A DNA stretch of 21,752 bases, from NCBI GenBank assembly GCA_964247735.1, contig CAXTVS010000054.1, positions 1 through 21,752 of the forward strand, written 5' to 3'. The notes under the pieces were generated by a model. It was not told the origin of the DNA and searched no databases. It was given only the letters and a program-made list of their open reading frames with translations. Made by a program: the position numbers and the translations under genes. Positions 3,631 through 20,929 of the stretch are shown here, in pieces (positions within the stretch are counted from its first letter, which is position 1; each line of letters starts with the position of its first letter). The DNA is from an uncultured Acetobacteraceae bacterium (GTDB taxonomy: Bacteria; Pseudomonadota; Alphaproteobacteria; Acetobacterales; Acetobacteraceae).

Positions 3631-4527
<897 letters not shown>

Positions 4528-4600
4528 CCAGCGCAGCCCGTTCTTCCGACAAAGCCGGCAGGGCGTGGCAGGAGACGTGGGCCGACCGGAGGAAAACAGA

Positions 4601-5587: not shown

Positions 5588-5644
5588 GGGGCTGGTACTT
5601 GGCAACACGTCGAACACGATCGTCTCACGCCGGAGCAAGCAACG

Positions 5645-7279
5645 ATGCAGACTGAAAGCGTGTACGACATCGTCCAGATCGGCTACGGGCCGGTCAGCCA
5701 GGTGCTGGCACTGATGATGGCGCGCCTCGGTTACCGCGTTGCGGTGATCGAGCGCTGGACCGAGCCGTACAGCCTGCCCCGTGCGGTCTGCATCGACCAC
5801 GAGGCGGCCCGGATCCTGCGCGCGATCGGGCTGAGCGAGAGCCTCGCCCGTGTGTCGCAGCCGGCGCCGCGCTACCAGTGGTTCAATGCCAACTGGGAGG
5901 AGCTGCTCTGCATCGACTGGAGCGCGGAGTCGGTGTCCGGCGGACCCGAGTCCAACTTCGTGCATCAGCCCAGCCTGGAGGCGGAGTTCCGGAAGGCCGT
6001 CCGCACCCATCCGAACGTGGAGCTGAACCTCGGCTGGGACTATGTCGGGCATGTCGACCGGGGCGACCAAGTCGAGGTCTCGCTGCGCGAGGTCGGCACC
6101 GGCCGCATGCAGACCCTGCACACACGCTATCTCGTGGGTGCCGATGGCGCCAACAGCCTCGTGCGCGAGCACCTGGGAATTGAGCGCGAGAACCGCGGCT
6201 TCCAGGCTGACTGGCTGGTCGTGGACATGAAGCTCAACCCGGGCGTCGTTCTCGACATCCCGGCGTGCGGACAGTACTGCAACCCGGCGCGGCCGACGAC
6301 GATCGTCCCGGGCGGCATGCATGACGGGCGCGTGTGCCGACGCTGGGAGTTCATGCGCCTGCCGAACGAGACGCGCGAGGAGCTGCAGAGCGAGGAGAAG
6401 GTCTGGTCGCTTCTCGAAGCCTGGGTGACGCGCGACCAGGCGGAGCTGGTGCGCTATGCCATCTATACCTTCCGCTCGCTGATCGCCGAGTCGTGGAACC
6501 GCGGCCGGGTGCTGCTGGTGGGCGACGCCGCGCACGTGATGCCGCCCTTCATGGGACAGGGGATGTGCGCCGGCATCCGCGACGCATGGAACCTGCGCTG
6601 GAAGCTCGACACCCTGCTGCGCGGCCTTGCCGACGACCGCCTGCTCGACAGCTACACCGCCGAGCGCAAGCCGCACGTCAGCGCCGTTATCGACGCCTCG
6701 ATCTACCTCGGCAAGGTGATCTGCATTGCTGATCCGGCGGAGGCCGCAGAACGCGACCGGGCCTTCAAGGCCGGAACGGCGGATCCGCTGCCGCCGTTTC
6801 CGCATCTGACTGCCGGGCTGCTGGCGCATGGACCGGACGCGGCGCCGGCCGGGCTGCTATCGCCGCACGGTCGGGTGCGCCGCAACGGACAGACCGGCCA
6901 GTGGGACGACGTGGTCGGACTCGGCTTCGTGGTGCTGCTGCGCGGCGCGAACCCGCACGGCCTGCTGCGACCGGACCAGCTGCGCATGCTGGACTTGCTG
7001 GGTGCGCAGGTGCTGCAGCTCGATGGCGCTTCGGGCGTCGACGCGCTGTCGGACCTGGACAACAAGTACGGCGCCTTCCTCGATGCACATGGTCTCGCCG
7101 GCTTGATCATGCGGCCGGACTTCTACGTGTTCGGCGGCGTGTCGCAGATGCGCGAGCTCCCAGCTCTGGTGGACGAGTTTCTGACGGTCATGGTCGGCAA
7201 CGGCGTTCGCCTGTCTGCCGCCGGCGACCAGCCGATCGACCTGAGCCACGTGCTGCGTCAGGACCAGCCTGCCGCGTGA
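5645..7279 (+). CDS. FAD-dependent aromatic-ring hydroxylase (group A flavoprotein monooxygenase; MhpA/PheA/TfdB/PcpB-type, ~544 aa).
   Basis: The N-terminus has a dinucleotide-binding fold (DIVQIGYGPVSQVLALMMARLGYRVAVIER). The conserved GD/DG core reads RVLLVGDAAHVMPPFMGQGMCAGIRDAWNLRWKL followed by LLDSYTAERKPHVSAVID. From memory this aligns closely with E. coli MhpA ([34 protein letters not shown]...YQQERRDHAKAMID). The RBS is GGAG, 9 nt upstream. Confidence 0.9.
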   Translation: MQTESVYDIVQIGYGPVSQVLALMMARLGYRVAVIERWTEPYSLPRAVCIDHEAARILRAIGLSESLARVSQPAPRYQWFNANWEELLCIDWSAESVSGGPESNFVHQPSLEAEFRKAVRTHPNVELNLGWDYVGHVDRGDQVEVSLREVGTGRMQTLHTRYLVGADGANSLVREHLGIERENRGFQADWLVVDMKLNPGVVLDIPACGQYCNPARPTTIVPGGMHDGRVCRRWEFMRLPNETREELQSEEKVWSLLEAWVTRDQAELVRYAIYTFRSLIAESWNRGRVLLVGDAAHVMPPFMGQGMCAGIRDAWNLRWKLDTLLRGLADDRLLDSYTAERKPHVSAVIDASIYLGKVICIADPAEAAERDRAFKAGTADPLPPFPHLTAGLLAHGPDAAPAGLLSPHGRVRRNGQTGQWDDVVGLGFVVLLRGANPHGLLRPDQLRMLDLLGAQVLQLDGASGVDALSDLDNKYGAFLDAHGLAGLIMRPDFYVFGGVSQMRELPALVDEFLTVMVGNGVRLSAAGDQPIDLSHVLRQDQPAA

Positions 7280-7298
7280 GCAGTATCGGAGTCGTGCC

Positions 7299-8273
7299 TT
7301 GACTGAGCAGCCCTTCCTGCCGCGTGTGGATGTGCACGCGCACTACCTTCCGGCCGGCTACCGCCGCGCTGCGGAGGCGGCAGGCCACCAACACCCGGAT
7401 GGAATGCCCGGCCTGCCGCGATGGGACGTGGACGCCGCGCTCGGCATGATGGATGGACTCAACATCCGCAGCGCCATGCTGTCCATCTCCTCTCCCGGCG
7501 TGCATTTCGGCGACGACCATGCGGCGCGCGCGCTGGCGCGCGAGGTGAACGAGGACGGCGCCCGGGCCGCCTCGGACCATCCGGGTCGCTTCGGATTATT
7601 CGCTGCGCTGCCGCTGCCCGACATCGACGGCTCCCTGGAAGAAGCCGCCTACGCCCTGGACGTGCTCGGGGCCGACGGGGTCACGGTCGAGACCAACCAC
7701 CACGGCCTCTACATGGGCGACCCGCAGCTCGACCCGCTGTTCGCCGAGCTCAACCGCCGGCGCGCCGTGGTGTTCATGCACCCTACCTCGCCCAGCTGTC
7801 CGTGCTGCCAGACGCTGTCGCTTGGCTATCCGCGGCCGATGATCGAGTTCATGTTCGAGACGACGCGTGCAGTCGCCAACCTGCTGCTGACCGGCACGCT
7901 GGACCGCTTCCCGGACATACGGCTGATCGTGCCGCATGCCGGCGCGGCGGTGCCGGTCCTGGCGGACCGGATCGCCGGCCTGTCGCCTGCCCTGACGTTG
8001 CCGAGCCCGGTGGAGCCGGATCGGCTCTTCGCCACCCTGCGTCGGCTGTATTACGACTTGGCGGGCTTTCCGCTGCCGCGTCTGGCACCGGCGCTGCTGC
8101 AGATCGCCGATCCGGGACGCATCCTCTACGGCAGCGACTGGCCGTTCACGCCGCTGCCGATCGCGACGCGCCTGGCCGGCGACATCGACGCCACGCCGCT
8201 GTTCGACGCGTCGCTGCGCCGCCGCATCCTGCAGGACAATGCCCTCGACCTGTTCCCACGCCTGCGCGGCTGA
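7299..8273 (+). CDS. Amidohydrolase-2 (ACMSD-family) metal-dependent non-oxidative decarboxylase/hydrolase. It is like gamma-resorcylate, 2,3-dihydroxybenzoate, 5-carboxyvanillate or salicylate decarboxylases.
   Basis: The N-terminal VDVHAHYLP (HxH metal motif) and C-terminal YGSDWPF are characteristic of PF04909. The product is 324 aa, a typical size. The start is TTG at 7299, with GGAG 7 nt upstream. It lies 20 nt after the hydroxylase stop, so it is probably co-transcribed. Confidence 0.8.
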   Translation: MTEQPFLPRVDVHAHYLPAGYRRAAEAAGHQHPDGMPGLPRWDVDAALGMMDGLNIRSAMLSISSPGVHFGDDHAARALAREVNEDGARAASDHPGRFGLFAALPLPDIDGSLEEAAYALDVLGADGVTVETNHHGLYMGDPQLDPLFAELNRRRAVVFMHPTSPSCPCCQTLSLGYPRPMIEFMFETTRAVANLLLTGTLDRFPDIRLIVPHAGAAVPVLADRIAGLSPALTLPSPVEPDRLFATLRRLYYDLAGFPLPRLAPALLQIADPGRILYGSDWPFTPLPIATRLAGDIDATPLFDASLRRRILQDNALDLFPRLRG

Positions 8274-8337
8274 AGGAGAAGACCGGAGTCGAAGCGGATC
8301 GCTGCCAGGACCGACACCACGCCCTGGTTCACCGGTC

Positions 8338-8355
8338 GCCGCCGACCGGCCGGCG
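8338..8355 (+). terminator. GC-rich hairpin 65 nt downstream of the decarboxylase stop. It is a weak candidate terminator for the aromatic operon.
   Basis: CCGGTCG-ccgc-CGACCGG forms a perfect 7-bp stem with a 4-nt loop. No T-tract follows. Confidence 0.2.
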
Positions 8356-8385
8356 GCACTCCGGATCCCGTCGAACGGTTGCCAA

Positions 8386-8442
8386 AGATGAGGGAACGCG
8401 TTTCTTGAAACACTGGGCGTACAGCTTTGGCGCCAAGCAGGA
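8386..8442. promoter_or_regulatory. Cluster of perfect palindromes in the unassigned spacer upstream of the thiolase operon. It is a candidate multi-site operator or promoter.
   Basis: Within 57 bp there are three perfect palindromes. They are AACGCGTT (8401-8408), GTTTCTTGAAAC (8406-8417, which contains TTGAAA) and TTGGCGCCAA (8433-8442). In addition, TTGCCAAAG (8386-8394) is inverted against CTTTGGC (8431-8437). This stretch is locally the AT-richest part of the 570-bp spacer. Confidence 0.3.
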
Positions 8443-8624
8443 CGGCCAGGTCAGCGGCTTGCGCCTGCCGTGTCGCCTTCTGCGAGAGTGGAGAGCGCGG
8501 TCTGGATGCGCAAGGCGGCGAGGCGCTACGGCGGGTCGAGGGGGCAGTCGGCCTGTCCTTCGCCGATCCCGGACGTCTGCTTCTGGCTTCCGTGCAGACC
8601 CGAGCACGGAGGTGGAGGCCGGGC

Positions 8625-8759
8625 ATGATGGACACGATCCCGCACAGCCTTCCGGCCTCGCCAGGCGCCGCTGCCGGGGCGATTGCGTTCGGCGGCGCCG
8701 GCGGGGTGGAGCGCCGGGCCGACTCGGGCGAGGACGTGCATGGTATGCACGCGGTCTGA
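8625..8759 (+). CDS. Possible small ORF (44 aa, Ala/Gly-rich) with a strong RBS. It could be a leader peptide or small protein, or a chance ORF.
   Basis: A tandem GGAGG..GGAGG (8607-8618) sits 6 nt upstream of ATGATG. The product would be MMDTIPHSLPASPGAAAGAIAFGGAGGVERRADSGEDVHGMHAV. GC3 is ~80%. No recognisable domain is present. It lies in the spacer before the thiolase gene. Confidence 0.15.
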   Translation: MMDTIPHSLPASPGAAAGAIAFGGAGGVERRADSGEDVHGMHAV

Positions 8760-8845
8760 CGCTTACTGACTGCGGCAGTGATGGAGAAGGCGCGACTGCC
8801 GCTGTCCGTCATGGTCGGCTACCAGGACACTGAGGACGAACGGTA

Positions 8846-10024
8846 ATGGCTGACAGGGACATCGTGATCGTCGGCGCGGCGCGCACGCCGGTCGGCAGCT
8901 TCAACGGCGCCTTCGCGGCCACGGCGGCGCACCTGCTGGGTGCGGCTGCGATCGGCGCGGCGCTGCGGCGCGCCGAGGTGGCGCCGGCCGAAGTGGATGA
9001 GGTGATCCTGGGTCAGGTTCTGACCGCCGCCCAGGGCCAGAACCCGGCACGCCAAGCGGCTCTTGCCGCAGGGCTGCCGCAGGAAGCCACCGCCTGGGGC
9101 ATCAACCAGGTGTGCGGTTCCGGCCTGCGCTCGGTGGCGCTCGGCATGCAGCAGGTCGCCGCCGGCGACGCGTCGGTGGTTGTTGCCGGCGGCCAGGAAA
9201 GCATGAGCCTGGCGCCGCACGCTGCCCACATGCGGGCGGGGCGGAAGATGGGCTCGATGTCCCTGGTCGACACCATGGTCGTGGACGGGCTGTGGGACGC
9301 CTTCAACGACTACCACATGGGCAACACGGCGGAGAACATCGCCACGCGCTGGCAGATCGGGCGGGCGGAGCAGGATGCGTTCGCCGCGCGGTCGCAGAAC
9401 AAGGCGGAGGCGGCGCGGGCGGCGGGCCGCTTCCGCGACGAGATCGTGCCGGTGACGGTCGGCAGCCGGCAGGGCGCGCGGCTTGTCGACGAGGACGAGC
9501 ACATCCGGCCGGGAACGACGATCGACGGCTTGTCGAAGCTGAAGCCCGCCTTCGACGGGACGGGCACCGTCACCGCCGGCAACGCGTCGGGCCTCAACGA
9601 CGGGGCCGCGGCCGTGGTGCTGATGACGGCGTCCGAGGCGGCGCGGCGCGGCCTCCTGCCGCTGGCGCGGATCGCGTCCTGGGCGACGGCGGGGGTCGAT
9701 CCCGCCTTCATGGGCACCGGGCCGGTCCCGGCCTCCCGCAGGGCGCTGGAGAAGGCCGGCTGGACCGTCGACGACCTCGATCTGGTCGAGTCCAACGAGG
9801 CGTTCGCAGCCCAGGCGTGCATGATCAACCACGAGATGGGCTGGGACCCGTCGATCGTGAACGTCAACGGCGGCGCCATCGCCATCGGCCACCCGATCGG
9901 CGCGTCGGGCGCCAGGGTGCTGGTGACGCTGCTGCACGAGATGCGTCGCCGGGACGCGGCGCGCGGCCTGGTGACCCTGTGCATCGGCGGCGGCATGGGC
10001 GTCGCGATGACGCTGGAGCGTTGA
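8846..10024 (+). CDS. Acetyl-CoA C-acetyltransferase (acetoacetyl-CoA thiolase, thiolase II; PhaA/AtoB-type).
   Basis: The product is 392 aa. The N-terminus reads IVIVGAARTPVGSFNGAF. The catalytic-Cys region reads INQVCGSGLRSV. The motif GQVLTAAQGQNPARQAALAAGLP is of the biosynthetic/acetoacetyl-CoA type rather than the PcaF/PaaJ type. The C-terminus reads GLVTLCIGGGMGVAMTLER. GAGGA lies 9 nt upstream of ATG 8846. Confidence 0.92.
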   Translation: MADRDIVIVGAARTPVGSFNGAFAATAAHLLGAAAIGAALRRAEVAPAEVDEVILGQVLTAAQGQNPARQAALAAGLPQEATAWGINQVCGSGLRSVALGMQQVAAGDASVVVAGGQESMSLAPHAAHMRAGRKMGSMSLVDTMVVDGLWDAFNDYHMGNTAENIATRWQIGRAEQDAFAARSQNKAEAARAAGRFRDEIVPVTVGSRQGARLVDEDEHIRPGTTIDGLSKLKPAFDGTGTVTAGNASGLNDGAAAVVLMTASEAARRGLLPLARIASWATAGVDPAFMGTGPVPASRRALEKAGWTVDDLDLVESNEAFAAQACMINHEMGWDPSIVNVNGGAIAIGHPIGASGARVLVTLLHEMRRRDAARGLVTLCIGGGMGVAMTLER

Positions 10025-10093
10025 CCCGTCTTTTCCCCCAAGCCTGTCGCCGCCCCCGCCGGGGCCGAGCCGATGCCAAGGTCGGACTGCACC

Positions 10094-10804
10094 ATGATGA
10101 CCAAGACCTATCCTGACGCGGACGCGGCGCTCGACGGCCTGCTGTCCGACGGCATGCTGATCGCCGCCGGCGGCTTCGGGCTGTGCGGCATCCCCGAGCG
10201 GCTGATCGCCGCGATCGAGCGGGCCGGCACCAGGCGCCTGCGCATTGCCTCCAACAACGCCGGCATCGACGGCGTCGGGCTCGGCCGCCTGCTTCGCTCG
10301 CGCCAGGTGGCGATGATGATCAGCTCCTATGTTGGGGAGAACAAGGAGTTCGAGCGCCAGTACCTGGCCGGCGAGCTGGAGGTGGAGTTCTGTCCGCAGG
10401 GGACGCTGGCCGAGCGGATGCGCGCCGGCGGTGCCGGCATCCCCGGCTTCTACACGCGCACCGGCGTCGGCACGCTGGCCGCCGAGGGCAAGGAGCACAA
10501 GACGTTCGGGGACCAGGTCTGCATCCTCGAGCGCGGCATCTTCGCCGACCTCGCGATCGTCAAGGCCTGGAAGGCCGACGGGACGGGCAACCTGGTGTTC
10601 CGCAAGACCGCGCGCAACTTCAACGTTCCCGCAGCCATGTGCGGGCGCGTCACGGTGGCGGAGGTGGAGGAGATCGTGCCCACCGGCACGCTTGATCCGG
10701 ACGGCGTGCACCTGCCGGGCGTGTTCGTGCAGCGCATCGTCTGCGGCGCGCCCTACGACAAGCGGATCGAGTTCCGCACGACCCGCTCGAGGGAGGTCGC
10801 CTGA
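10094..10804 (+). CDS. scoA: 3-oxoacid (succinyl-CoA:acetoacetate) CoA-transferase, subunit A.
   Basis: The protein is collinear, from memory, with B. subtilis ScoA and other ScoA/AtoD proteins: [93 protein letters not shown]. The start is placed at ATGATG 10094 by N-terminal alignment. ATG 10073 is possible but has no RBS. The stop overlaps the next start (TGATG). Confidence 0.88.
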
Positions 10805-11598: not shown

Positions 11599-11632
11599 AG
11601 CTGTAACGATCAAAACAGGACGGGGAAGAACG

Positions 11633-12865
11633 ATGCGCGATGTCTTGATGACGGGAGCTCCGGGCGACGTCGCGGAGTTGGATCACGACTGGCTGGCGGT
11701 CATTGCCGCCTCGATCGGCCTGATTTTCAGCGCCGGCACCCTGACGATCTATTCCTTCGGCGTGTTCGTGCATCCTCTGCACGCGCAGTTCGGCTGGAGC
11801 CGCACCCAGCTCGGGGGCGCCGTCGCGATCTCGCAGCTTGGACTGGCGGTGGCATCGCCGCTGTGGGGCTCGGCGATCGATCGCCTCGGCCCGCGGATCG
11901 TGCTGCTGGTCTCGGTGGTAATGATCTCGCTCCTGATCGCATCGCTGTCGCTGCTCACCCCGCATCTGTGGCATCTGTATCTGGCGTACGGCGCCATCCC
12001 GTTCCTGGCGGCCGGCGCCTCGCCGCTTGGCTATTCCGCCGTCCTGATCCGGCGCTTCGAACGCCATCTCGGTCTGGCGCTGGGCCTGGCAACCATGGGC
12101 GTCGGTTTAGGCGCCACCCTGCTTCCTCTCATTGCGCAGATCCTGGTCGGAACCTTCGGCTGGCGCGACGCCTACGCGATCATCGGCGTGATCACCGTGG
12201 TGATCGGTATACCGGCCGCCCTGGTCACCACGCGTCACGTGCGCGGTCCGGTGGCGCGCCGGAGCGACGTCGCCGCGCCGCCGGTCATGCCGCTGATGCG
12301 GACCGGGACCTTTATCCTGCTGTGCACGGTGTTCTTCCTGCTAGGCATCACCACCGTCGGCGTGCTGGCGCAGCTGGTGCCGATGATGATCGACCGCGGC
12401 TTCTCTCCGCCGGCGGCGGCCCGGATGGCGGCCCTGACCGGCCTCGCGGCGCTGGTCAGCCGGGGCGGCATCGGCTGGGTGCTGGACCGGGCGCAGGCGC
12501 CGCGCGTGGTCGCAGCCATCGCGGTGCTGGCTGCCGTCTCCTTCCTGCTGCTGGTGTTCGGCCCGACCCACGGCGCGAGCTACTTCGCGGTCGTGCTGCT
12601 GGGGGGAGCCATTGGCGCCGAGGTGAACTTCATCGCCTACCTGACCCGCCGCCACTTCCCGCAGATGGTGTACGGCCGCCTCTACGGCGTCGAGTTCGGC
12701 ATCTACCTCGTCGGCGGCGGGATCGGGCCGCTGCTGCTCGGGCTGAGCTTCGATCACATGGGCGGCTACACCCCAAGCCTGCTGCTATTCACCGTTCTGG
12801 TCCTAATCGCGGCCGGCTTCGCGCTGCGGATCCCGAGGCATGGCCTCCTCGCCGGCTCGCGTTGA
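11633..12865 (+). CDS. Major facilitator superfamily (MFS) transporter, 12-TMS type. Substrate unknown.
   Basis: The product is 410 aa, with ~12 hydrophobic segments arranged 6+6 around a central charged loop (TTRHVRGPVARRSDVAAPPVMPLMRTG). An MFS-like motif follows TMS2 (GSAIDRLGPRIVLL). The RBS is GGGGAAG. Confidence 0.85.
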   Translation: MRDVLMTGAPGDVAELDHDWLAVIAASIGLIFSAGTLTIYSFGVFVHPLHAQFGWSRTQLGGAVAISQLGLAVASPLWGSAIDRLGPRIVLLVSVVMISLLIASLSLLTPHLWHLYLAYGAIPFLAAGASPLGYSAVLIRRFERHLGLALGLATMGVGLGATLLPLIAQILVGTFGWRDAYAIIGVITVVIGIPAALVTTRHVRGPVARRSDVAAPPVMPLMRTGTFILLCTVFFLLGITTVGVLAQLVPMMIDRGFSPPAAARMAALTGLAALVSRGGIGWVLDRAQAPRVVAAIAVLAAVSFLLLVFGPTHGASYFAVVLLGGAIGAEVNFIAYLTRRHFPQMVYGRLYGVEFGIYLVGGGIGPLLLGLSFDHMGGYTPSLLLFTVLVLIAAGFALRIPRHGLLAGSR

Positions 12866-12989
12866 GCGGAAGCCCTGCAGCGTGGGTCTGCATCATCGAA
12901 CCTCAGGGATCGAAGAAGACAAACGTGTTCACGACGAGCAGGGGTTCCGGCCGTTGACGATGCGGGCGCCTGGATTTTTGGAAGACAGA

Positions 12990-14600
12990 ATGGCAGAAAC
13001 GTCTAGTAGCTTTCGGAACGACCGGCCTACGGGGCGGCGCGGATGGCGTCGTTCGCTGCTCGCCGCCATGACCCTGGCCGCCGCTGCCTTCGTTCCGGTC
13101 GCAGCCCGATCGGCAAGAGCGGATGCGCCAGCAACTGTGGCCGGCGACTTGGTTCTGGACGGCGTCACGATCGTCGATACCCGCACCGGTGCGCTTGCGC
13201 CGAACATGGCGGTCGTGGTGTCGGGCGGCAGGATCGCGCAGATCCTGCGCGCGCCCGTCGCCGTCGGTGCCTCGACCAGGCTGGTCGAGGCACAGGGCAA
13301 GTTCGTGGTGCCGGGCTTCAACGACTTGCACGCCCATCCTCTGGGCGACCCCGACCCGTCGAGCAGCCTCATCATGCTGCTGGTCAACGGAGTCACCGGC
13401 GTCCGTCAGATGTCAGGATCGCCGGAAATGCTGATGGACCGGAAGAACGGCAAGCTGCCCTCCGCCGGCGCGGCACCGGAGATCCTGGCGATGCCCGGGG
13501 CCATCTTCACCCGCCAGAACGCGCCCACCCCGGAGGCCGGCGTCGCGGAGGTGGACAGGCAGAAGACGGAAGGGGCGGACTTCATCAAGGTGGTTGATGT
13601 CTCGCCGTCGACCTTCTTTGCCGTTGGCGCGGAGGCGAAGAAGGTCGGGCTGCCGTTCGAGGGACATCTTCCCAACGGGGTTGATGCGGTCAAGGCCGCC
13701 GCGGCGGGCTACCGCTCGATTGAGCATCTGGGACCGTTCGACACGCTGCTAATCTCGTGCTCGACCGACGAGGACGCAATCCGCGCCTCGGTCGCTAGGC
13801 TGCCGGTGGCCAGCATCCCGTCCTTCATCCCCGGCTTCATGGTGCGCAAGATCGTCCGTGCGGCGATTTCCGAGCCGCTTCTTGCACGGGTAAAGTCCGA
13901 CCCGACCACGATCTCCCGGCTGCAGCACGTCGTCGACACCTTCAGCGAAGCCAAGTGCCGCAAGGTGGTGCAGGAGCTTTCGGCCAGTGGAACCTGGCAG
14001 GCGCCGACCCTGATCCGCGACCGCACAATGGATTTCGGTGACGATCCGGTCTACCGCAACGACCCGAACCTCCGCTACGTGGCGTCGCCGACGCGCGAGT
14101 TCTGGTTCGGACTGGCCCAGCGCTACTCGACCACGATCACGCCAAGCGACAAGGCCACGCTGTCGCAGTTCTGGAACCTGCAGCTCAAGCTGCTCAAGCT
14201 GCTCGACCAGTCGAACACGCCGATGATGGCTGGGTCGGATCTGGGCGGACAATGGGAAATACCGGGCTTCAGCCTGCACCAGGAATTCGACCTGCTGGCA
14301 CAGAACGGCATCGCGCCATTGAAGGTCCTGCAGATGACCACCCTCAACGGCGCCAGGTTCTTCGGCCGCGAGGCGAGCATGGGCACCGTCGAGCAGGGCA
14401 AGAACGCCAACCTGGTGTTGCTCGATGCCAACCCGATGGAGAGCGTCCAGAACCTGCACAGGATCGACGGCGTGGTTCGCGCCGGGACCTACTATTCGCG
14501 GCACGATCTCGACGCGATGAAGCAGATGGTGGAACAGCGGCTGGCATCCGGCGCGCTCGACGCCCAGTCCGAGGCGATTCCGGGTGGTGACAGCCGATAG
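12990..14600 (+). CDS. Metal-dependent amidohydrolase-superfamily hydrolase (TIM-barrel, PF01979/PF07969-like), with a Tat signal peptide that probably exports it to the periplasm.
   Basis: The N-terminus carries a twin-arginine motif followed by a hydrophobic region and an AxA site: GRRGWRRSLLAAMTLAAAAFVPVAARSARA|DAPA. The amidohydrolase N-terminal beta-sandwich (VDTRTGALAPNMAVVVSGGRIAQIL) and the HxH metal motif (VVPGFNDLHAHPL) are present. So is the conserved C-terminal EQGKNANLVLLDANP. The start is set at ATG 12990 (MAETSS). ATG 12960 and ATG 12840 are in-frame alternatives. Confidence 0.85.
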   Translation: MAETSSSFRNDRPTGRRGWRRSLLAAMTLAAAAFVPVAARSARADAPATVAGDLVLDGVTIVDTRTGALAPNMAVVVSGGRIAQILRAPVAVGASTRLVEAQGKFVVPGFNDLHAHPLGDPDPSSSLIMLLVNGVTGVRQMSGSPEMLMDRKNGKLPSAGAAPEILAMPGAIFTRQNAPTPEAGVAEVDRQKTEGADFIKVVDVSPSTFFAVGAEAKKVGLPFEGHLPNGVDAVKAAAAGYRSIEHLGPFDTLLISCSTDEDAIRASVARLPVASIPSFIPGFMVRKIVRAAISEPLLARVKSDPTTISRLQHVVDTFSEAKCRKVVQELSASGTWQAPTLIRDRTMDFGDDPVYRNDPNLRYVASPTREFWFGLAQRYSTTITPSDKATLSQFWNLQLKLLKLLDQSNTPMMAGSDLGGQWEIPGFSLHQEFDLLAQNGIAPLKVLQMTTLNGARFFGREASMGTVEQGKNANLVLLDANPMESVQNLHRIDGVVRAGTYYSRHDLDAMKQMVEQRLASGALDAQSEAIPGGDSR

Positions 14601-14730
14601 GCGCGGACGTCGCGCGACTCGGCCGCAGGGGAAGAGCCTTATAAGGTCCGGCCAATCCGTCGCCGGCAACGCAGGGGCAACGCGATGCGACCACAGCCCG
14701 ACTGACCGACAACCCTGGAGGTTCGAGCCG

Positions 14731-16593
14731 GTGCGCTTGGCGACTTTGACTTCCCTCACCTTGGAAGGACGACAGGACCTCCGGCCCGCCGTTGCCACCG
14801 GGCTCGGAGGCGTCCTGTTCCTGGTTGCGGCCGCGGCATTCCGATCCGGCGCGGCAGGGGCGATGTCGGACAGTGTTGCCGCGTCGCTGGGCATCGCCAC
14901 CTCCGGATGTGCCGCCGCGGTCTTGATGGTCAGGGCGCGCGTCATCCTGCTTCGGGCGGAGCACGAGGCGGCGCCTGCTGCGGCTGCGAACCGGAGGGCT
15001 AAGGCGCTGCGCCTGCGCGCCGGCCGTCTGGGCGGCTGGCAGCAGACGGCGCTCGGCGGCCTGATCGCGGCTGCCAGCACCTGGGCTGGAGCGTCCGCTC
15101 TCCTTCACGACACGAGCTGGAATGGTGGAACGGGGCAGGCAACGGCCGGTGGGATCGCGTTGCTGGTGGGCTCCTTCGCGCTTCTGGTGGTCGAGCGCCA
15201 TCTCGCGGCCCTCGCCCCGGTCGTCCTGCCGGAAGCGCCTGTCCTCGCCTGCCTGATCCGGGTGCCGATCGCGGTATCGGCGCTTTGCGGCGTCGGCTGC
15301 CTGATGCTCGGTGCAGGGATCGGCCTCGGCCGTCATGCCGGCCCGGCCTCGGCGATTCTTTGCCTCCCTGTGGCCGCCGAAATCGTCATCCGCGCCCTGG
15401 CGACTATGTTCGTGCCGTTCCCGCCGCCGGACGAAGCCCGGATGACGGTCCGGAGCGCGATCGCCGGCGCGATCGCCCTGCGACGTCCGCCGCCCGACGC
15501 GATGCGCGACCTGTTCGGCATCGATCTGTCGTACAGTTGTGCGCTCGCGTTCGTCCGCGCAGCCCTCGTGCCGGTGACGGCGGTGCTGGCGCTGATCGGG
15601 TGGGCGCTGTCCGGCGTCGAGGCCCTGCACCTAGACCAGCGCGGCGTCTATGAGCGGTTCGGCCAGCCGGTCGTGGTATTCGGCCCCGGACTGCACCTCC
15701 ATCTGCCCTGGCCGATCGGGCGGCTGCGTCCGGTGGAGTTCGGCGTGCTGCACGACGTTCCCGTCGCGTTCGCAGCTGGCGGGGGTCCAGCCGCGACCAC
15801 GTCGGCCCCGCCGGCGGCGGAGGCGGATCCTGGGCCTGCCGAGGACCGGCTCTGGAACGGAACCCGCGCCTCCGAAAGCGCCTACCTCGTCGCCAGCCTG
15901 TCGCGCGGCCGGCAGAGCTTCGAGAGCCTCGACATCGGCCTGCGCGTGGTCTACCGCGTCGGCCTGTCCGACGCCGCGGCGCTGGAGGCTGCCTTCGCCG
16001 TCGGCGATCCGCAGCGCCTAGTCCAGGCCAGGACCAGCCGGCTGCTGGCGCGCTACGTCGCCCACCACACCCTGCCGGACATGCTGGGATCCGGCCGCGC
16101 CGGCTTCGCGCGCGACATCGCCACGTCGCTGCAGGACGGGCTCGATGCCAGCCGGACCGGCCTGCAGGTGATGGCGATCGTGGTCGAGGCGATCCATCCG
16201 CCGGCCGGTGCCGCTGAGGCCTATCACGCCGTGCAGGCGGCCGAGGTCAACCGCCACACGACCATCGCCGAGCAGCAGGCAGAGTCGGCGCAGGCCGAGA
16301 TCGATGCGAGGCGCGACGCGACCAATGTCGCCAACGCCGCCGCGGCGAACGCTCGCGACGCGGTAGTCGATGCCGAGGTGGGCGCCACCGCGTTCGCCGC
16401 CGACCGCACCGCGGACGCGCGCAGCCCGGCCTCCTTCATCCTGGAGCGCCGCCTCGACAAGCTCGCGAGCGGGCTCGCGCACCGGAGGCTGCTGATCGTG
16501 GACCATCGCTTGGGAACGGCCGGCGTGCTGCTCGACCTGCGCTCTTCCGGCGGCGGCGCGATGCTTCTGCCGCCGCGCAGCCGCGAGCCATAG
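14731..16593 (+). CDS. HflK/HflC-like SPFH (band-7) protein fused to a ~280-aa polytopic N-terminal membrane domain of unknown family (SPFH-A).
   Basis: The proposed start is GTG 14731, 10 nt downstream of GGAGG (14716-14720). Residues 1 to ~280 contain about 6 hydrophobic helices (for example GLGGVLFLVAAAAF, IALLVGSFALLVV, LIRVPIAVSALCGVGCLMLGAGIGLG, ILCLPVAAEIVIRALATMFVPF). GC3 is high in this frame only. Next comes the canonical SPFH anchor and entry, LVPVTAVLALIGWALSGVEALHLDQRGVYERFGQPVVVFGPGLHLHLPWPI. An Ala-rich coiled-coil follows, then an HflK-like C-terminus FILERRLDKLASGLAHRRLLIVD. Confidence 0.8.
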   Translation: MRLATLTSLTLEGRQDLRPAVATGLGGVLFLVAAAAFRSGAAGAMSDSVAASLGIATSGCAAAVLMVRARVILLRAEHEAAPAAAANRRAKALRLRAGRLGGWQQTALGGLIAAASTWAGASALLHDTSWNGGTGQATAGGIALLVGSFALLVVERHLAALAPVVLPEAPVLACLIRVPIAVSALCGVGCLMLGAGIGLGRHAGPASAILCLPVAAEIVIRALATMFVPFPPPDEARMTVRSAIAGAIALRRPPPDAMRDLFGIDLSYSCALAFVRAALVPVTAVLALIGWALSGVEALHLDQRGVYERFGQPVVVFGPGLHLHLPWPIGRLRPVEFGVLHDVPVAFAAGGGPAATTSAPPAAEADPGPAEDRLWNGTRASESAYLVASLSRGRQSFESLDIGLRVVYRVGLSDAAALEAAFAVGDPQRLVQARTSRLLARYVAHHTLPDMLGSGRAGFARDIATSLQDGLDASRTGLQVMAIVVEAIHPPAGAAEAYHAVQAAEVNRHTTIAEQQAESAQAEIDARRDATNVANAAAANARDAVVDAEVGATAFAADRTADARSPASFILERRLDKLASGLAHRRLLIVDHRLGTAGVLLDLRSSGGGAMLLPPRSREP

Positions 16594-16601
16594 GAGCGGA
16601 C

Positions 16602-17660
16602 GTGTCTGGACATCGTCACCATGACCATGAGCACATTCATGGCGATCACCATGGTCACCGGCACGCGGTGCCAGAGGACGTTCCGGCGCGGCTACGCTGC
16701 ACCGGCCCTTTGATCGTTGTAGCTCTGATCGCGCTCCTGACCTTTTCCGCCACCTGCCTGACCGTCGTGGAACCGGGCCAGGCGGTGGTGCTGACCGCAT
16801 TCGGCGCACCGGTGCGGGTGATGACCGAGCCGGGCCTGACGCTGCGCTGGCCAGCGCCGTTTGAGGCGGTCGTGCCAGTCGATGTCCGACTGCGCACCAC
16901 GTCCACCGGCCTGCACGACGTCGGCACGCGCGACGGCCTACGCATCCTGGTGCAGGCCTATGTCGAGTGGCGGGTGCCCCCGGATGCCGGCCGCGTCGTC
17001 CAGTACCTCCAGGCGGTGCGCAACGCGCCGGACGAGGCGGCCGAGCAGCTGCGCAGCTACCTGGGGTCGTCGCTGGAGATCGTGGCGGCGCGCTACGACC
17101 TGTCGCAGCTGGTCAACACCGATCCGTCCAGGGTGCGGCTCGACGCGTTCGAGGACGTCCTCAAGGCCCACCTTCAGGCGCAGGTGCTCGCCGGATATGG
17201 AATCAGCATTCTGCATGTCGGGATCGAGCGCCTGACATTGCCGGGCGACACGTTGGAGGCAACCGTCACGCGCATGACGGCGGAGCGCAACACAGTTGCC
17301 GCACGCATCAACGCGGAGGGCGAGCGGGCCGCGTCGGAGATCGAATCGGACGCCTCGCGCGACGCACGGATCGTGGCCGCCAACGCGCGCGCCGAGGCGG
17401 CGCGGGTGGAGGCCAGGGCGGGGCTGCAGGCAGCCGACATCTATGCCGCCGCCTATAGCAGCGCGCCCGGGCTCTACACTCTGCTGCGCTCGCTCGACAT
17501 GCTGGGAACGGTGGTCGGGGACAACACGCGGCTGGTGCTGCGGACCGATGCCGCGCCGTTCGGTGCCTTCGTTTCCGGTCCGTCCGTCATGGCCCCAGCC
17601 GCCGCTTCAGACACCGTGCCGGGCGCTGCGCCAGCTCCGGCGTCGGGCCGGAAACGCTAG
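16602..17660 (+). CDS. HflC-like SPFH (band-7) protein with a His-rich N-terminal cytoplasmic tail (SPFH-B).
   Basis: The GTG start is 9 nt after the SPFH-A stop, and AGGAG overlaps that stop. The N-terminus reads (M)SGHRHHDHEHIHGDHHGHRHAVPEDVPARLR, with 11 His in 18 residues. A single TM follows (LIVVALIALLTFSATCLTVV). The SPFH core reads VEPGQAVVLTAFGAPVRVMTEPGLTLRWPAPFEAVVPVDVRL. An Ala/Arg-rich coiled-coil follows (ERNTVAARINAEGERAASEIE...ARAEAARVEARAG). The C-terminus is HflC-like (PGLYTLLRSLDMLGTVVGDNTRLVLRTD). Confidence 0.85.
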   Translation: MSGHRHHDHEHIHGDHHGHRHAVPEDVPARLRCTGPLIVVALIALLTFSATCLTVVEPGQAVVLTAFGAPVRVMTEPGLTLRWPAPFEAVVPVDVRLRTTSTGLHDVGTRDGLRILVQAYVEWRVPPDAGRVVQYLQAVRNAPDEAAEQLRSYLGSSLEIVAARYDLSQLVNTDPSRVRLDAFEDVLKAHLQAQVLAGYGISILHVGIERLTLPGDTLEATVTRMTAERNTVAARINAEGERAASEIESDASRDARIVAANARAEAARVEARAGLQAADIYAAAYSSAPGLYTLLRSLDMLGTVVGDNTRLVLRTDAAPFGAFVSGPSVMAPAAASDTVPGAAPAPASGRKR

Positions 17661-17662
17661 GG

Positions 17663-18730
17663 ATGGCTTCGACCGCGGCTGGATCCATCCGTGCCTTGAT
17701 ACATGGACCTCGGGCGCAGGGACCTTGGACGCAGGCGATCCGGCTTGCCTTCCGGGCGACGTTCGGCCTCGTGCTGGCGGCAGCCCTGGCATGGCCGTTC
17801 ACCAACATCACCGAGGTCCAGCCGGACAGCCGTGCGGTGGTGCTGCGCCTGGGACGGGTGGTGCGGGTGCAGGGGGCCGGCCTGCTGCTCGCCTGGCCGA
17901 GGCCGTTCGAGCGGATCGTGCTGCTACCTTCCGCAGAGCGCCAGATCGAGTTCTCGTTCGACCCGCTTCGGTCGCCAAGCGGCCCCGGGGGTACGTCGAC
18001 GGAGTGGGCGGTGCAGGCCGACCCGCGGCAGAACGCCGCGTTCTTCATGACGTCGGACGGGGTGGTCCACCTGACCGCGAGCGTGTTCTACCACATCGTC
18101 GATCCGGCCGAGTACGTGCTGGAGACCGGCCGCGTGCCGGCGGCCCTCAAGGCGCTCACCATGGCGAGCGTGGTCGCCCTCGCGGCGGCGCGCGACACCG
18201 ACACCCTGGTCGTTACCCGTGGCGGCACCGACCTGACGCAGGCCGACCGGATGCGGCGGGAGCGGCTGCGCATCGACCTGGCATCGGCAATCAACCGGCA
18301 GCTGGCCGAGCTGCGGCGGCTGGATGCCGGCCTCGGCGTCGAGATCAGCCGGGTCGACGTCGGCACCGCGCTGCCGAGCGGCGCCAAGGCCGCCTTCGAG
18401 GAGGTGCTGACTGCCGCTCAGCAGGCCGACTCACTAGTCGCCGAGGCGCACAGCGTGGCCATCCGGATCGAGCAGACCGCGCAGCAGAACCGGACTGCCC
18501 TGTTGGCCGAGGCCAGGGCCTCGGCCGACGGGCGCGTCGCCGCCGCCATCGCCCGCACCGCCTCGATCCGTACGCTGGCGCGTCCGGCCGGCGGCCTCGC
18601 CGGGCTCGCGCTGCTGACCGGCATCTACAACGACCGCATGCGCGCCATCCTGCACCAGGCTGGATCGGTGGACGTGTTCGACCCTCATAGCGGCACGTGG
18701 CTGGTGCTGCCTGGCCAGACGGCGCGCTGA
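17663..18730 (+). CDS. HflK/HflC-like SPFH (band-7) protein, third paralogue (SPFH-C).
   Basis: The ATG is 2 nt after the SPFH-B stop, so the genes are translationally coupled. There is a short N-terminal cytoplasmic segment and one TM (FGLVLAAALAWPF). The SPFH entry reads EVQPDSRAVVLRLGRVVRVQGAGLLLAWPRPFERIVLLP. A coiled-coil follows (EAHSVAIRIEQTAQQNRTALLAEARASADGRVAAAIA). The HflK/C-type C-terminus reads LLTGIYNDRMRAILHQAGSVDVFDP. Confidence 0.85.
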   Translation: MASTAAGSIRALIHGPRAQGPWTQAIRLAFRATFGLVLAAALAWPFTNITEVQPDSRAVVLRLGRVVRVQGAGLLLAWPRPFERIVLLPSAERQIEFSFDPLRSPSGPGGTSTEWAVQADPRQNAAFFMTSDGVVHLTASVFYHIVDPAEYVLETGRVPAALKALTMASVVALAAARDTDTLVVTRGGTDLTQADRMRRERLRIDLASAINRQLAELRRLDAGLGVEISRVDVGTALPSGAKAAFEEVLTAAQQADSLVAEAHSVAIRIEQTAQQNRTALLAEARASADGRVAAAIARTASIRTLARPAGGLAGLALLTGIYNDRMRAILHQAGSVDVFDPHSGTWLVLPGQTAR

Positions 18731-18792
18731 GCGGTTTCGCTGCGATGGACAGCGCCGGCGGCAATGGCCCGACCCTGGCGAGGACGCGCCGG

Positions 18793-18813
18793 GGCGGTCA
18801 TGCCGCCTCATTT
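18793..18813 (+). terminator. Candidate intrinsic terminator after the SPFH operon.
   Basis: GGCGG-tcatg-CCGCC is followed by TCATTTGGG, a GC stem with a short T-rich tail. It lies 63 nt after the SPFH-C stop. On the other strand it sits between the convergent alpha/beta-hydrolase gene end and the SPFH operon. Confidence 0.3.
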
Positions 18814-19110
18814 GGGCGTCTCGGCGCCCCGCGATCGGCCACCGGCAGCAGCACGTCCGCCTCAGGTCCTGGACGCGGTCGCGCGCGTCGCAGCCGATTT
18901 CCCGAACGACGTCCCGACCACGATGACGGCACAGGCGATCCTGCTGCGTACGGCGGCGGTGGGGCCAGCCTGTCCTCAGGTCGGCGAAGCCCTCTGCCGG
19001 TATCCGAAGCCTGCTTGCTTCGGCCTCCTGTCCGCAGGCGGGCCGGCCGCAGCCGGCCCGTGCGGAGATTACCGGGACGAGCCTCGCGAGCTCAAAAGCC
19101 CTCTTCCCGG

Positions 19111-20082
19111 TCAGGGTGCTCCCTCAGGCGAGGACGAAGACGCGGCACGGTTCTCCACCTCGCGCATGAACGCGTCGACGACGGTGTTGAACTCCTCGGC
19201 ACTTGCTTGCTGCACGAAATGGTTGGACGCCCGAACGACGACGTAGCGGCCGCCGGTCATCTCGGCGACGACGCTGCCGACCGTGTCGAAGGACGAGCTC
19301 CAGCCGCCGCTGATGACCAATACCGGAATGCCCGACCTGGCAATCGTTTCCGCCGCCTGCTGCAACATTGGCGGCGGCGCCATGCGCCCCTGCAGCAGCG
19401 CGCATCCGACCCGCGTCGCCTGCTCCGGATCGTTCTGGAAGGCGGTGGTGACGGCGTTGGGCCCGTCGCCCTCGGTGCCCATGCCGCGCGCGAAGGCCAG
19501 GCCGTATTCGCCCGGCGTGCGGACCTCCATCATCAGCTTCATGATCTGGGCGCCGGCCATCTTGATGGCGGGGTCGGTGGCGGCACGCGGATGCACCATC
19601 AGCAGAGGGTGCAGCGCCGGCTCGATGAGGGTGAGGGAACGCACCGCCTCCGGACGGCGGCCAGCCGCCAGGAGCGCTTCCGCACCACCCCAGGAATGAC
19701 CGATCAGGTGGGCGCTCCCCCCCAGCATGTCGGCGATCCAGACCGAGTCGGCCTCCATGTCGTCGACGCCCCGGGACACGCTCCGGCCGAAGCCCGGCCG
19801 GTCGACCACTGCCAGTTGCCAACCCTTCTCGGCCAGCGGCTTCTGCTTGTCGAAGGTTCTCGGCCCCCCGCCCAGGCCCCCCTGCACGCCGCCGTGCACG
19901 ACCAGCACCGTAGGTCCGGTCGTTCCCCAATAGTTGACGTGGATCGGATGCTTGGCCGCTTCTTCGGGCGAGAGCCTCGGCGGCGGTGACGGGCACTGGG
20001 CCAGAAGGGCTGCCCGTTGCCTCGCGATCGCGGCACCAGGGCCGGCCGCCTCCGGCGCAGCAGGACTGGACTGGGACATCAT
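19111..20082 (-). CDS. Alpha/beta-fold hydrolase (Ser nucleophile; esterase/peptidase-like), downstream of and co-directional with the TetR gene.
   Basis: The nucleophile elbow reads HLIGHSWGGAEAL (G-x-S-x-G). The oxyanion region reads VLVVHGG. The product is ~324 aa, the usual alpha/beta-hydrolase size. The start is set at ATGATG 20082/20079, 4-7 nt after AGGAAGGA. The ATG at 20097 in the table has no RBS and overlaps the tetR stop. Confidence 0.85.
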   Translation of the reverse strand: MMSQSSPAAPEAAGPGAAIARQRAALLAQCPSPPPRLSPEEAAKHPIHVNYWGTTGPTVLVVHGGVQGGLGGGPRTFDKQKPLAEKGWQLAVVDRPGFGRSVSRGVDDMEADSVWIADMLGGSAHLIGHSWGGAEALLAAGRRPEAVRSLTLIEPALHPLLMVHPRAATDPAIKMAGAQIMKLMMEVRTPGEYGLAFARGMGTEGDGPNAVTTAFQNDPEQATRVGCALLQGRMAPPPMLQQAAETIARSGIPVLVISGGWSSSFDTVGSVVAEMTGGRYVVVRASNHFVQQASAEEFNTVVDAFMREVENRAASSSSPEGAP

Positions 20083-20096
20083 ATGATCCTTCCTCA

Positions 20097-20738
20097 TCAG
20101 GTCTTATGCAAATTCGAGGGATCAGGCAGCCCCTCTGAGAGCTGCTCCAGGGCCTCGCGCAGGAGCGGCACTAGCGGCACCGGTGGATCGGCCTTGAGGA
20201 ACGCATCGATTGCTACCTGAATTGTACCGGTCACCGCTGCTGCCACCAGCCTGGGGTAAAGGTCTTTGTCGATGTCAGTACTGCTGCGTCGGGCGACTGC
20301 TGCAGCGAAAGGGTTGTCCTCAGCGAAGCCTGCCTTCAGAACCTCCGCACGGACGGATGACGCTGCGAACAAGGTGCGCAACTCAGCCGCAGAGGCAGGA
20401 TTGGGTGCCGTGTGGCCTCGGGCCGCGTGGCTCCAAGGCGACATGACCGCATTGATGATCGCATCCCATAGCAGCTCGTCCGCCGGCCTGGCGTGCAGGG
20501 CATTGGCGACGTGACGCATCCTGCCGACGAACTGCGCGGTCAGCGCCTCATATTTGTTGGAGAAGTAGTTGTTAAAGGTCCGCACGGAGACATCCGCCTC
20601 GGCTGCGATGTCTTCTATACGTAGTGCTTCAAGGCCATGCCTCAGCGTCAAACGCATGGCCGCGGCAGCCAGAGCATCCCGAGTTGCCTGCTTCTTCCGC
20701 TCGCGTAGGCCGCGTCCGGCCGCTGTCAAATCGATCAT
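20097..20738 (-). CDS. TetR/AcrR-family transcriptional regulator.
   Basis: The N-terminal HTH reads RERKKQATRDALAAAAMRLTLRHGLEALRIEDIAAEADVSVRTFNNYFSNKYEAL. The C-terminal domain is helical. The start is trimmed to ATG 20738 (MIDLTAAG...) so that the promoter and palindrome upstream remain non-coding. The 51-codon extension in the table is poorly coded. Confidence 0.85.
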   Translation of the reverse strand: MIDLTAAGRGLRERKKQATRDALAAAAMRLTLRHGLEALRIEDIAAEADVSVRTFNNYFSNKYEALTAQFVGRMRHVANALHARPADELLWDAIINAVMSPWSHAARGHTAPNPASAAELRTLFAASSVRAEVLKAGFAEDNPFAAAVARRSSTDIDKDLYPRLVAAAVTGTIQVAIDAFLKADPPVPLVPLLREALEQLSEGLPDPSNLHKT

Positions 20739-20757
20739 GTCGTCACGCACACAAACA

Positions 20758-20787
20758 TACATACCCGTACTTTGCGCGACGCGCAAA
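20758..20787 (-). promoter_or_regulatory. Predicted tetR promoter overlapped by a palindromic operator.
   Basis: On the minus strand the sequence reads TTTGCGCG-T-CGCGCAAA (plus-strand coordinates 20771-20787). This is a perfect 8-bp-arm inverted repeat with a 1-nt centre. The -35 TTGCGC lies inside the palindrome. After a 17-nt spacer comes the -10 TATGTA (plus-strand complement at 20758-20763), and 20 nt further on is ATG 20738. This is the classic TetR autoregulatory arrangement. Confidence 0.45.
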
Positions 20788-20929
20788 CTTGCGTATAGTG
20801 CATAGCGGTTGGAGAGGCTCATACCGACGGCGGCGGCTCCTGCCTGTGCCATAATCTTTGGCGGCTTCATCATGAGGCGTTGGTATGCCAACCGGTTGAT
20901 CGGCTAGCATCGCCTGGTTGGGCTAGACG

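Follow-up and report, generated by a model that had tools for sequence, protein, structure and literature searches.

A family-wide six-helix membrane module fused to HflK-like SPFH proteins encoded beside P1B-type ATPase genes

A gene here called A was analyzed in a stretch of 21,752 nucleotides (the window; contig CAXTVS010000054.1, positions 1 to 21,752) from an uncultured Acetobacteraceae bacterium. Ahead of the membrane anchor of an HflK-like SPFH protein, its product carries a membrane module, residues 1-268, which is confirmed as real, translated, and selectively maintained and which, far from being peculiar to the window, defines a large family (551 loci). The N-terminal part of this extension (the N-domain) is predicted to fold as six transmembrane (TM) helices in a manner resembling the cation diffusion facilitator (CDF) proteins. 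On the reading favored here, which is held to be on balance probable, this CDF-like six-helix module fused to an HflK-like SPFH protein would act as an adaptor in a cage built from the products of gene A and of the two genes that follow it, B and C, around a zinc P-type ATPase. SPFH proteins, among them HflK/C, prohibitins, stomatins, and flotillins, are now seen as cages enclosing membrane clients; to our knowledge, the bacterial SPFH clients other than FtsH are poorly defined.

Gene A lies in a + strand frame that is open from 14584 to 16593 and that yields a protein of 620 residues when translation begins at a GTG codon at position 14731. The upstream amidohydrolase gene ends at 14600, which leaves an intergenic region of 130 nucleotides before gene A. 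The gene and its parts are as follows.

14717-14721, + strand: Shine-Dalgarno sequence GGAGG for gene A, read directly from the sequence, 9 nucleotides before GTG-14731.
14731-16593, + strand: gene A, 620 residues; its product runs from the six-TM N-domain through the linker and the TM anchor to the HflK-like SPFH domain and its coiled coil.
14731-15405, + strand: six-helix TM domain, residues 1-225, with a predicted CDF-like fold.
15406-15534, + strand: conserved, putatively cytoplasmic linker, residues 226-268, recognized from alignments by the motifs FVPFPP, S242/A245, and FGIDLSRSWA (FGIDLSYSCA in the window).
15535-15624, + strand: canonical SPFH membrane anchor helix, residues 269-298, placed by both AlphaFold models, hydropathy, and alignment.
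15625-16590, + strand: putatively periplasmic SPFH domain and coiled coil, residues 299-620, with an insertion of ∼45 residues (residues ∼338-385) and conserved histidines.

The start at GTG-14731 given by the initial annotation is the best candidate: it is preceded at a suitable distance by GGAGG, an identical 620-residue gene call from the same GTG is already held by NCBI/ENA (P0001; exact look-up), and the N termini of homologues align at this position with the pattern M[RL]LA[ED]L. The fraction of GC in the frame of gene A was 0.73-0.96 at third positions versus 0.43-0.69 at second positions throughout 14734-16593. Together with intact open reading frames (ORFs) in ∼75 relatives and ∼20 near-invariant residues, this high third-position GC bears out the claim that the extension is coding. 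In a comparison of 83 loci, the long ORF of A was intact at 600-750 residues, the only exceptions being L030 and L044, in which the neighboring genes are also fragmented in the same assemblies; the frameshifts in orthologous loci that had been raised as a counter-indication were therefore not encountered in essentially any of them. An internal start at M258, the first residue of MRDLFGIDL, had also been considered, but this position is occupied by valine, isoleucine, or other residues in most homologues and falls inside a conserved stretch that includes the FGIDLSRSWA motif.

A full-length search with protein A returned 402 relatives, and the family comprises more than 100 protein clusters; the best 120 of the relatives were mostly 600-700 residues long, with coverage of the query reaching 100%. 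When one genome was scanned for each GTDB species, the 551 loci with the N-domain were revealed, which are distributed in Acetobacteraceae (many of them lichen metagenome-assembled genomes), Beijerinckiaceae, Xanthobacteraceae, Bradyrhizobium, Rhizomicrobium, Stellaceae, Dyella, Xanthomonas, one Rhizobium plasmid, and many Pseudomonas species. The whole N-domain could be aligned throughout in alignments of 31, 62, and 74 sequences from Acetobacteraceae, Xanthobacteraceae, Bradyrhizobium, Rhizobium, Dyella, Pseudomonas, and Xanthomonas. Near-invariant or invariant positions, numbered as in A, were R70, W103, F149, L152, V153, E155, R156, P167, A169, R177, E217, R221, F227, P229, S242, A245, G263, D265, W270, and A271, with F227, S242, G263, D265, and A271 conserved at 99-100%.

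An exhaustive HMMER search with residues 1-270 against 1.84 billion cluster representatives gave 65 matches, and all of these were the N-terminal parts of SPFH proteins of ∼600-700 residues or were fragments arising from contig ends or frameshifted tails. No convincing stand-alone N-domain was present among the 65 matches; each short match that was considered as a stand-alone version proved to be a contig-end truncation or a frameshifted tail. A word-indexed search with the N-domain alone returned no relatives, probably because Ala/Leu-rich words swamped its candidate list. A check for stand-alone homologues adjoining SPFH genes elsewhere had been proposed, and a fused client or scaffold had been named among the possible roles of the module. 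The exhaustive search found no such homologues, and the idea that a formerly separate neighbor became fused is thus unsupported, although a scaffold or client-like module remains a reasonable description of the domain.

Residues 1-300 of A had no match in Pfam, NCBIfam, or PADLOC. AlphaFold placed six helices at residues 17-36 (TM1), 40-79 (TM2), 84-125 (TM3), 134-160 (TM4), 169-194 (TM5), and 198-225 (TM6), followed by the 43-residue linker with two short helices and then by the anchor helix. Kyte-Doolittle hydropathy peaked at residues 19-37, 49-67, 136-154, 171-189, and 209-227, with the anchor peak at 271-289. Hydropathy and AlphaFold thus agree with the original description of a polytopic domain of about six helices fused in-frame before the SPFH anchor LVPVTAVLALIGWALSGV (residues 279-296). 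A model of the N-domain alone had a mean predicted local distance difference test (pLDDT) score of 84 and a predicted template modeling score (pTM) of 0.80, with pLDDT values of 87-97 over residues 21-240; inside the full-length model, the pLDDT values of the N-domain were 86-98. The N terminus, the linker, and the loops between TM2 and TM3 and between TM4 and TM5 together hold 16 lysine and arginine residues, versus 2 on the other loops, an imbalance that argues for a cytoplasmic N terminus and linker. In the resulting topology, the N terminus would be cytoplasmic along with the Arg-rich loops and the linker, and the SPFH body would be periplasmic, as in HflK/HflC.

In a Foldseek comparison, the top matches of the predicted N-domain were YiiP, ZnT7, ZnT3, and SLC30A10, with E-values of 0.25-1, probabilities of no more than 0.87, and TM-scores of 0.3-0.43. 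The best of these structures are the membrane domains of bona fide Zn2+/H+ antiporters in inward-facing states. At the level of sequence, Pfam, which includes the CDF family (PF01545, Cation_efflux), gave no match at E ≤ 10 for 24 members of the family of A, and a PDB profile search with the N-domain gave no match. Alignment of the N-domain with FieF/ZitB/ZnT alignments by hhalign gave a probability of 0.2-0.3%, a weak test given the shallow CDF profile, which consisted of FieF sequences at least 85% identical supplemented with ZnT1/3/8 segments from PDB alignments.

Transport by CDF proteins requires a quartet of Asp/His residues in TM2 and TM5 (metal site A). No conserved His, Asp, or Cys was found in any helix of the N-domain, which argues against a canonical metal transporter. 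The residues conserved in TM2 and TM5 of A are instead G59, R70, R177, P179, and G187, and the conserved residues of the N-domain are Gly, Arg, Pro, and Trp, together with two Glu and three Arg that in sequence lie near the cytoplasmic ends of TM4-TM6. The ZT_dimer domain (PF16916) had no match in A, in which the 43-residue linker comes after TM6 and leads to a seventh helix and then to the SPFH domain. The N-domain is therefore described as CDF-like in its predicted fold and not as a member of the CDF family; the two may share an ancestor, but this is unproven. The CDF-like fold of this domain is new with respect to the literature that was searched.

It is unlikely, in light of these data, that the N-domain is itself a working ion pathway, that is, a divergent CDF-type transporter or channel for Zn2+, H+, or another ion that is regulated by the fused SPFH scaffold. 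Such a role would accord with the inward-facing Zn2+/H+ antiporter domains found as best structural matches, with a predicted six-TM topology that would likewise have both termini in the cytoplasm, with the zinc operon setting described below, and with the charged residues conserved within TM4-TM6. Those charges, however, appear clustered toward the cytoplasmic helix ends and not along a transmembrane path, and R70 and R177 sit at the places where ligands of the missing quartet would be expected. The cytoplasmic C-terminal domain of CDF proteins is also absent, and homology to them is undetectable by sequence.

The remainder of protein A is a clear member of the SPFH superfamily, with a Pfam Band_7 (PF01145) match of 55.7 bits (cut-off 23.6) over residues 303-518. 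Structural matches of protein A include stomatin, HflK/C, prohibitin, erlin, and flotillin. The anchor helix aligns with the single TM helix of Escherichia coli HflK/HflC, as it does with that of proteins B and C, and long coiled-coil helices were predicted by AlphaFold after the SPFH domain (residues 494-564 and 566-583). By contrast, A scored 59.7 bits with the HflK model TIGR01933, below its cut-off of 159.4, and 33.8 bits with NF008181 against a cut-off of 660, and does not therefore qualify as an HflK equivalog. Homologues of A of 652 residues from Pseudomonas are annotated as “protease modulator HflK” or “hypothetical”; because A falls so far below the equivalog cut-off, the HflK name is an over-annotation. 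The naming of the Pseudomonas orthologues (e.g. WP_150812734.1 and WP_223443661.1) as “protease modulator HflK” is probably a systematic mis-annotation, given that the family representative from the window scored far below the HflK threshold and that the genes adjoin a P1B ATPase gene. No ftsH or hflX gene was present in the window or in the annotated flanks of L001-L003.

The family-specific insertion of ∼45 residues in the SPFH domain of A (nucleotides 15740-15890) carries an invariant AE...DRLW motif and was modeled with pLDDT values of 32-46. Histidines conserved in A occur in the motifs GLHxHLPWP, HD[IV]P, and EAIHPPxGAAxAYHxVQ (residues ∼338-385 and 486-502; nucleotides 15740-15890 and 16190-16230) and are absent from E. 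coli HflK/HflC. These SPFH-domain histidines may form a periplasmic metal site.

Gene A is followed on the same strand by two further SPFH genes.

16602-17660, + strand: gene B, encoding a 352-residue HflC-like SPFH protein with a His-rich, putatively cytoplasmic N-terminal tail; Band_7 103.8 bits, HflC model 95.3 bits against a cut-off of 134.4.
17663-18730, + strand: gene C, encoding a 355-residue SPFH protein that is HflK-like and has one TM helix; Band_7 57.3 bits, always third in the order A-B-C.

Genes A, B, and C of the window (14731-18730) are thus three consecutive SPFH genes, the first with the long N-domain. Mapping of 83 loci by tblastn gave the order A-B-C-ATPase in all 77 of the 77 relatives with enough downstream DNA. 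In two relatives annotated with Pfam, three SPFH genes were followed by an E1-E2 ATPase gene; directly upstream in one of the two lie genes for ZnuA, a Zur-like regulator of the Fur family, ABC components of the ZnuBC type, and a TonB receptor. ZnuA or Zur genes were located near A in several loci, namely L001/L002, L005, L008, L012, L019/L021, L029, and L035. The ATPase of the relatives is a P1B pump of ∼640 residues with a CPC motif, and its best matches are TIGR01525 and TIGR01512. In L036, a Pseudomonas locus, an ORF of 184 codons with a lipoprotein-like signal (PA2436-like) lies between C and the ATPase gene at 11623-12177. The L036 ATPase (12196-14160) has a His-rich tail of its own at the start, MSVHHHHGHAHHGHSHGH; a tail of this kind is missing from the alphaproteobacterial ATPase of L003.

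Protein B of the window begins MSGHRHHDHEHIHGDHHGHRH, with 10 His in residues 1-21 (nucleotides 16602-16664). The tail is kept in most related loci; where the start could be cleanly assigned, residues 1-60 typically contain 7-19 His. The tail is rich in Asp as well as His and is conserved across alpha- and gammaproteobacteria. The topology outlined above would place this tail in the cytoplasm, and it is plausible that it is a zinc-binding element supplied in trans to the pump.

The arrangement of these loci matches that of the PA2439-PA2434 cluster in Pseudomonas aeruginosa, in which PA2439 is described as “HflK family,” PA2438 as “HflC,” PA2437 as “HflC family,” and PA2435 as the P-type ATPase HmtA. 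According to reviews, HmtA is an atypical P-type ATPase whose overexpression raises cellular zinc and copper (PMC10393844). In a znuA mutant, transcripts of PA2434, PA2435, and PA2437-PA2439 were raised 5.6- to 14.4-fold (PMC4542158), and zinc depletion raised the levels of the PA2435, PA2438, and PA2439 proteins (PMC11761036). The PA2439 promoter was shifted by Zur in a Zn-dependent manner in a study that called PA2439 the first gene of the hmtA locus (PMC8531726). Like the PA2439 cluster, Pseudomonas relatives of the window locus encode a long SPFH protein, a second and a third SPFH protein, optionally a small ORF, and a P1B ATPase, and protein A of the window is 35-40% identical to the Pseudomonas proteins. 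Judged by gene order in relatives and by the literature, gene A corresponds to the first gene of an operon equivalent to the Zur-regulated PA2439-PA2435/hmtA cluster. Although zinc-starvation studies have made this operon known, it is mis-annotated, with its SPFH genes labeled as FtsH modulators, and the SPFH proteins are unstudied; the literature found on the PA2439 cluster does not mention the six-helix N-domain. The module defines a “PA2439-type” subfamily of SPFH proteins and is family-wide, uncharacterized, and without a Pfam entry.

The copy in the window is atypical. Among 78 informative loci, it is the only one without a P1B ATPase gene after A-B-C; downstream of C lie an alpha/beta hydrolase gene (19111-20097, − strand) and a TetR gene (20097-20891, − strand). 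No remnants of ATPase, ZnuA, or Zur genes were found anywhere in the 21.7-kb window, and none of the ATPase even at E ≤ 10. An ORF of 430 codons overlapping the end of C (ORF D; 18697-19989, + strand) was considered as a fourth operon gene and rejected; it is Arg/Gly-rich, has no Pfam match, and is antisense to the alpha/beta hydrolase gene. Of 115 alignment columns conserved to 90% or more, protein A of the window departs from its family at 11, where the family median is 2, although several other divergent lineages also show 10-19 deviations. The departures include C270 where 96% of the family have Trp and R379 in place of His in the periplasmic part (15865-15867); the window also has Y268 where at least 90% have Arg (15535-15543 for Y268 and C270). 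A pump encoded elsewhere, a change of partner, or incipient decay may lie behind these features of the window copy.

Zur-box-like GTTAT...ATAAC palindromes lie upstream of A in relatives: CGTTATATCGTAACG in Pseudomonas and Xanthomonas, and, in alphaproteobacterial loci, CGTTATAACG in L007 (∼5486) and L015 (∼7687) and TGTTATATTATAACG in L041 (∼1984). The Pseudomonas CGTTATATCGTAACG boxes are situated ∼10-90 nucleotides upstream of the A ORF. The 130-nucleotide intergenic region before gene A in the window contains one candidate element.

14637-14646, + strand: perfect 10-bp palindrome CCTTATAAGG, a possible degenerate operator.

This palindrome occurs once in the window, was present in 0 of 100 shuffles, and is a symmetric variant of CGTTATAACG in which G is changed to C and C to G. 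Elsewhere in the window, a truncated IS4/IS5-family DDE transposase fragment (173-748; weak matches to DDE_Tnp_1 and DUF4096) lies close to the start of the contig beside an OprB-family porin gene (776-2332, − strand). The region 4499-10711 contains several long overlapping ORFs on both strands (e.g. 4499-6829, −; 5645-7279, +; 7421-8833, +; 8819-10711, −) with no Pfam match in the frames tested.

In the favored model, the ATPase would be surrounded by a heteromeric SPFH ring or cage assembled from A, B, and C, and the six-helix module of A would be a membrane-embedded “pseudo-transporter” adaptor that holds or organizes the pump inside the cage. That the module would not be a canonical transporter follows from its missing CDF metal-site residues. 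The Glu/Arg cluster (E155, R156, R177, E217, and R221), which by sequence position appears to lie toward the cytoplasmic ends of TM4-TM6, could provide a contact or lipid-binding surface, and the His-rich tail of B could be a cytoplasmic metal-binding element, serving as acceptor or sensor. The arrangement of cage and client is modeled on the cryo-EM structures of HflK/C-FtsH (PMC12048511) and on PacL1-CtpC platforms (PMC9374683). A specific partnership of A-B-C with the pump is supported by their strict co-occurrence in 77 of the 77 informative loci.

Several points weigh against this model. Physical contact between these SPFH proteins and the ATPase is a postulate in every organism. The orthology with PA2439 was deduced from gene order in other Pseudomonas species and from the description in the literature. 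The window has no ATPase, ZnuA, or Zur gene and no canonical Zur box, so that the zinc and ATPase context of its own copy is taken from relatives, and its 11 deviations in 115 columns, including W270C, could mean a changed or relaxed function.

The N-domain might alternatively be a lipid- or membrane-organizing anchor without a specific protein client, its extra helices and Arg cluster binding anionic lipids and determining how large or how curved the SPFH ring is. SPFH proteins are established organizers of membrane microdomains (PMC12048511, PMC11260169), the conserved Arg/Glu cluster appears from its position in the sequence to lie toward the cytoplasmic leaflet, and the window keeps A-B-C intact with no adjacent ATPase gene. 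An anchor of this sort would have no need, however, of ∼20 near-invariant residues and a conserved linker motif, and the invariable presence of a P1B ATPase gene in the informative relatives points to a specific partner; this explanation is accordingly considered a little less likely than that of an ion pathway. Improbable, and more so than either, is a sensor of cytoplasmic or membrane zinc status or of ATPase activity that makes the SPFH assembly open and close. The conserved cytoplasmic linker does join the N-domain directly to the SPFH anchor helix, and the His-rich cytoplasmic tail of the partner protein B could deliver a metal signal, but the N-domain has no conserved metal ligands and does not resemble known sensor folds. 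Finally, an annotation artefact, with translation beginning near M258 and the upstream hydrophobic frame non-functional, is effectively refuted already and retains almost no credence: long spurious ORFs do arise in high-GC genomes and the start is GTG instead of ATG, but residue-level conservation spans alpha- and gammaproteobacteria, the ORF is intact in ∼75 loci, M258 is not conserved, GGAGG is correctly spaced before GTG-14731, and the N-domain fold is predicted with confidence.

A more detailed form of the adaptor model can be offered only tentatively and is thought rather unlikely as a whole. The N-domain would be a CDF derivative that lost its metal site and was recruited as the adaptor of a three-subunit SPFH cage enclosing an HmtA-type P1B ATPase, with the periplasmic histidines of A and the tail of B funneling or buffering zinc on either side of the pump. 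If this were true, it would be the first example of an SPFH cage devoted to a metal transporter and would represent a new way of acquiring zinc with high affinity, conserved in hundreds of species of proteobacteria, Pseudomonas pathogens among them. The family in any case offers a genetically hard-wired client candidate, a P1B zinc/copper ATPase encoded beside three SPFH genes, two of them with unusual add-ons. Recognition of the N-domain provides a signature by which the family can be identified in sequences, a model of how the atypical “importer” HmtA works that is open to test, and a possible instance of a transporter fold re-used as a scaffold. As for the window, gene A is correctly called and belongs to a known, uncharacterized family, and its copy has lost the adjacent pump.

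Among known systems, the PA2439 cluster is the closest in gene order, and the window locus differs from it in lacking the ATPase gene, a canonical Zur box, and any znu or zur gene. Like the CDF/SLC30 proteins (YiiP/FieF, ZitB, and ZnT1-10), the N-domain is predicted to have six TM helices with cytoplasmic termini, and it has a zinc-related genomic context; unlike them, it has no detectable sequence or profile similarity to the family, no metal-site quartet, and no cytoplasmic C-terminal dimerization domain. E. coli HflK/HflC-FtsH resembles A and B in its SPFH domains with coiled coils and in the predicted cytoplasmic N terminus and periplasmic SPFH body, and HflK-like and HflC-like paralogues are encoded adjacently in both. 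PA2439-type loci nevertheless have three paralogues where E. coli has two, and A possesses six extra TM helices, the ∼45-residue periplasmic insertion, and its own conserved histidines. The gene neighboring the family is that of a P1B ATPase, and ftsH or hflX is absent from the annotated flanks. The analogy drawn in the initial annotation with NfeD-SPFH fusions holds as a functional likeness only: Pfam identified Band_7 alone in A, B, and C and no NfeD domain (PF01957), and the extra module of A, unlike that of NfeD-SPFH pairs (QmcA-YbbJ), is N-terminal, six-helical, and unrelated in fold. A role in anti-phage defense was set aside when PADLOC gave no match for A, B, or C.

A further parallel is offered by the mycobacterial PacL1-CtpC “effluxosome” platforms, in which the neighbor of a P1B ATPase gene specifies a small scaffold in the membrane that bears a metal-binding motif on its cytoplasmic side, comparable to the His-rich tail of B together with the SPFH scaffolds in the present family. 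PacL1 is needed to organize the pump in membrane foci, and its behavior was described by the authors as flotillin-like (PMC9374683, PMC13043812). The PacL proteins differ from the SPFH proteins described here in being single-pass, non-SPFH DUF1490 proteins with no polytopic domain, and PacL systems serve efflux under metal excess, whereas the operon of the PA2439 type is a Zur-repressed starvation operon.

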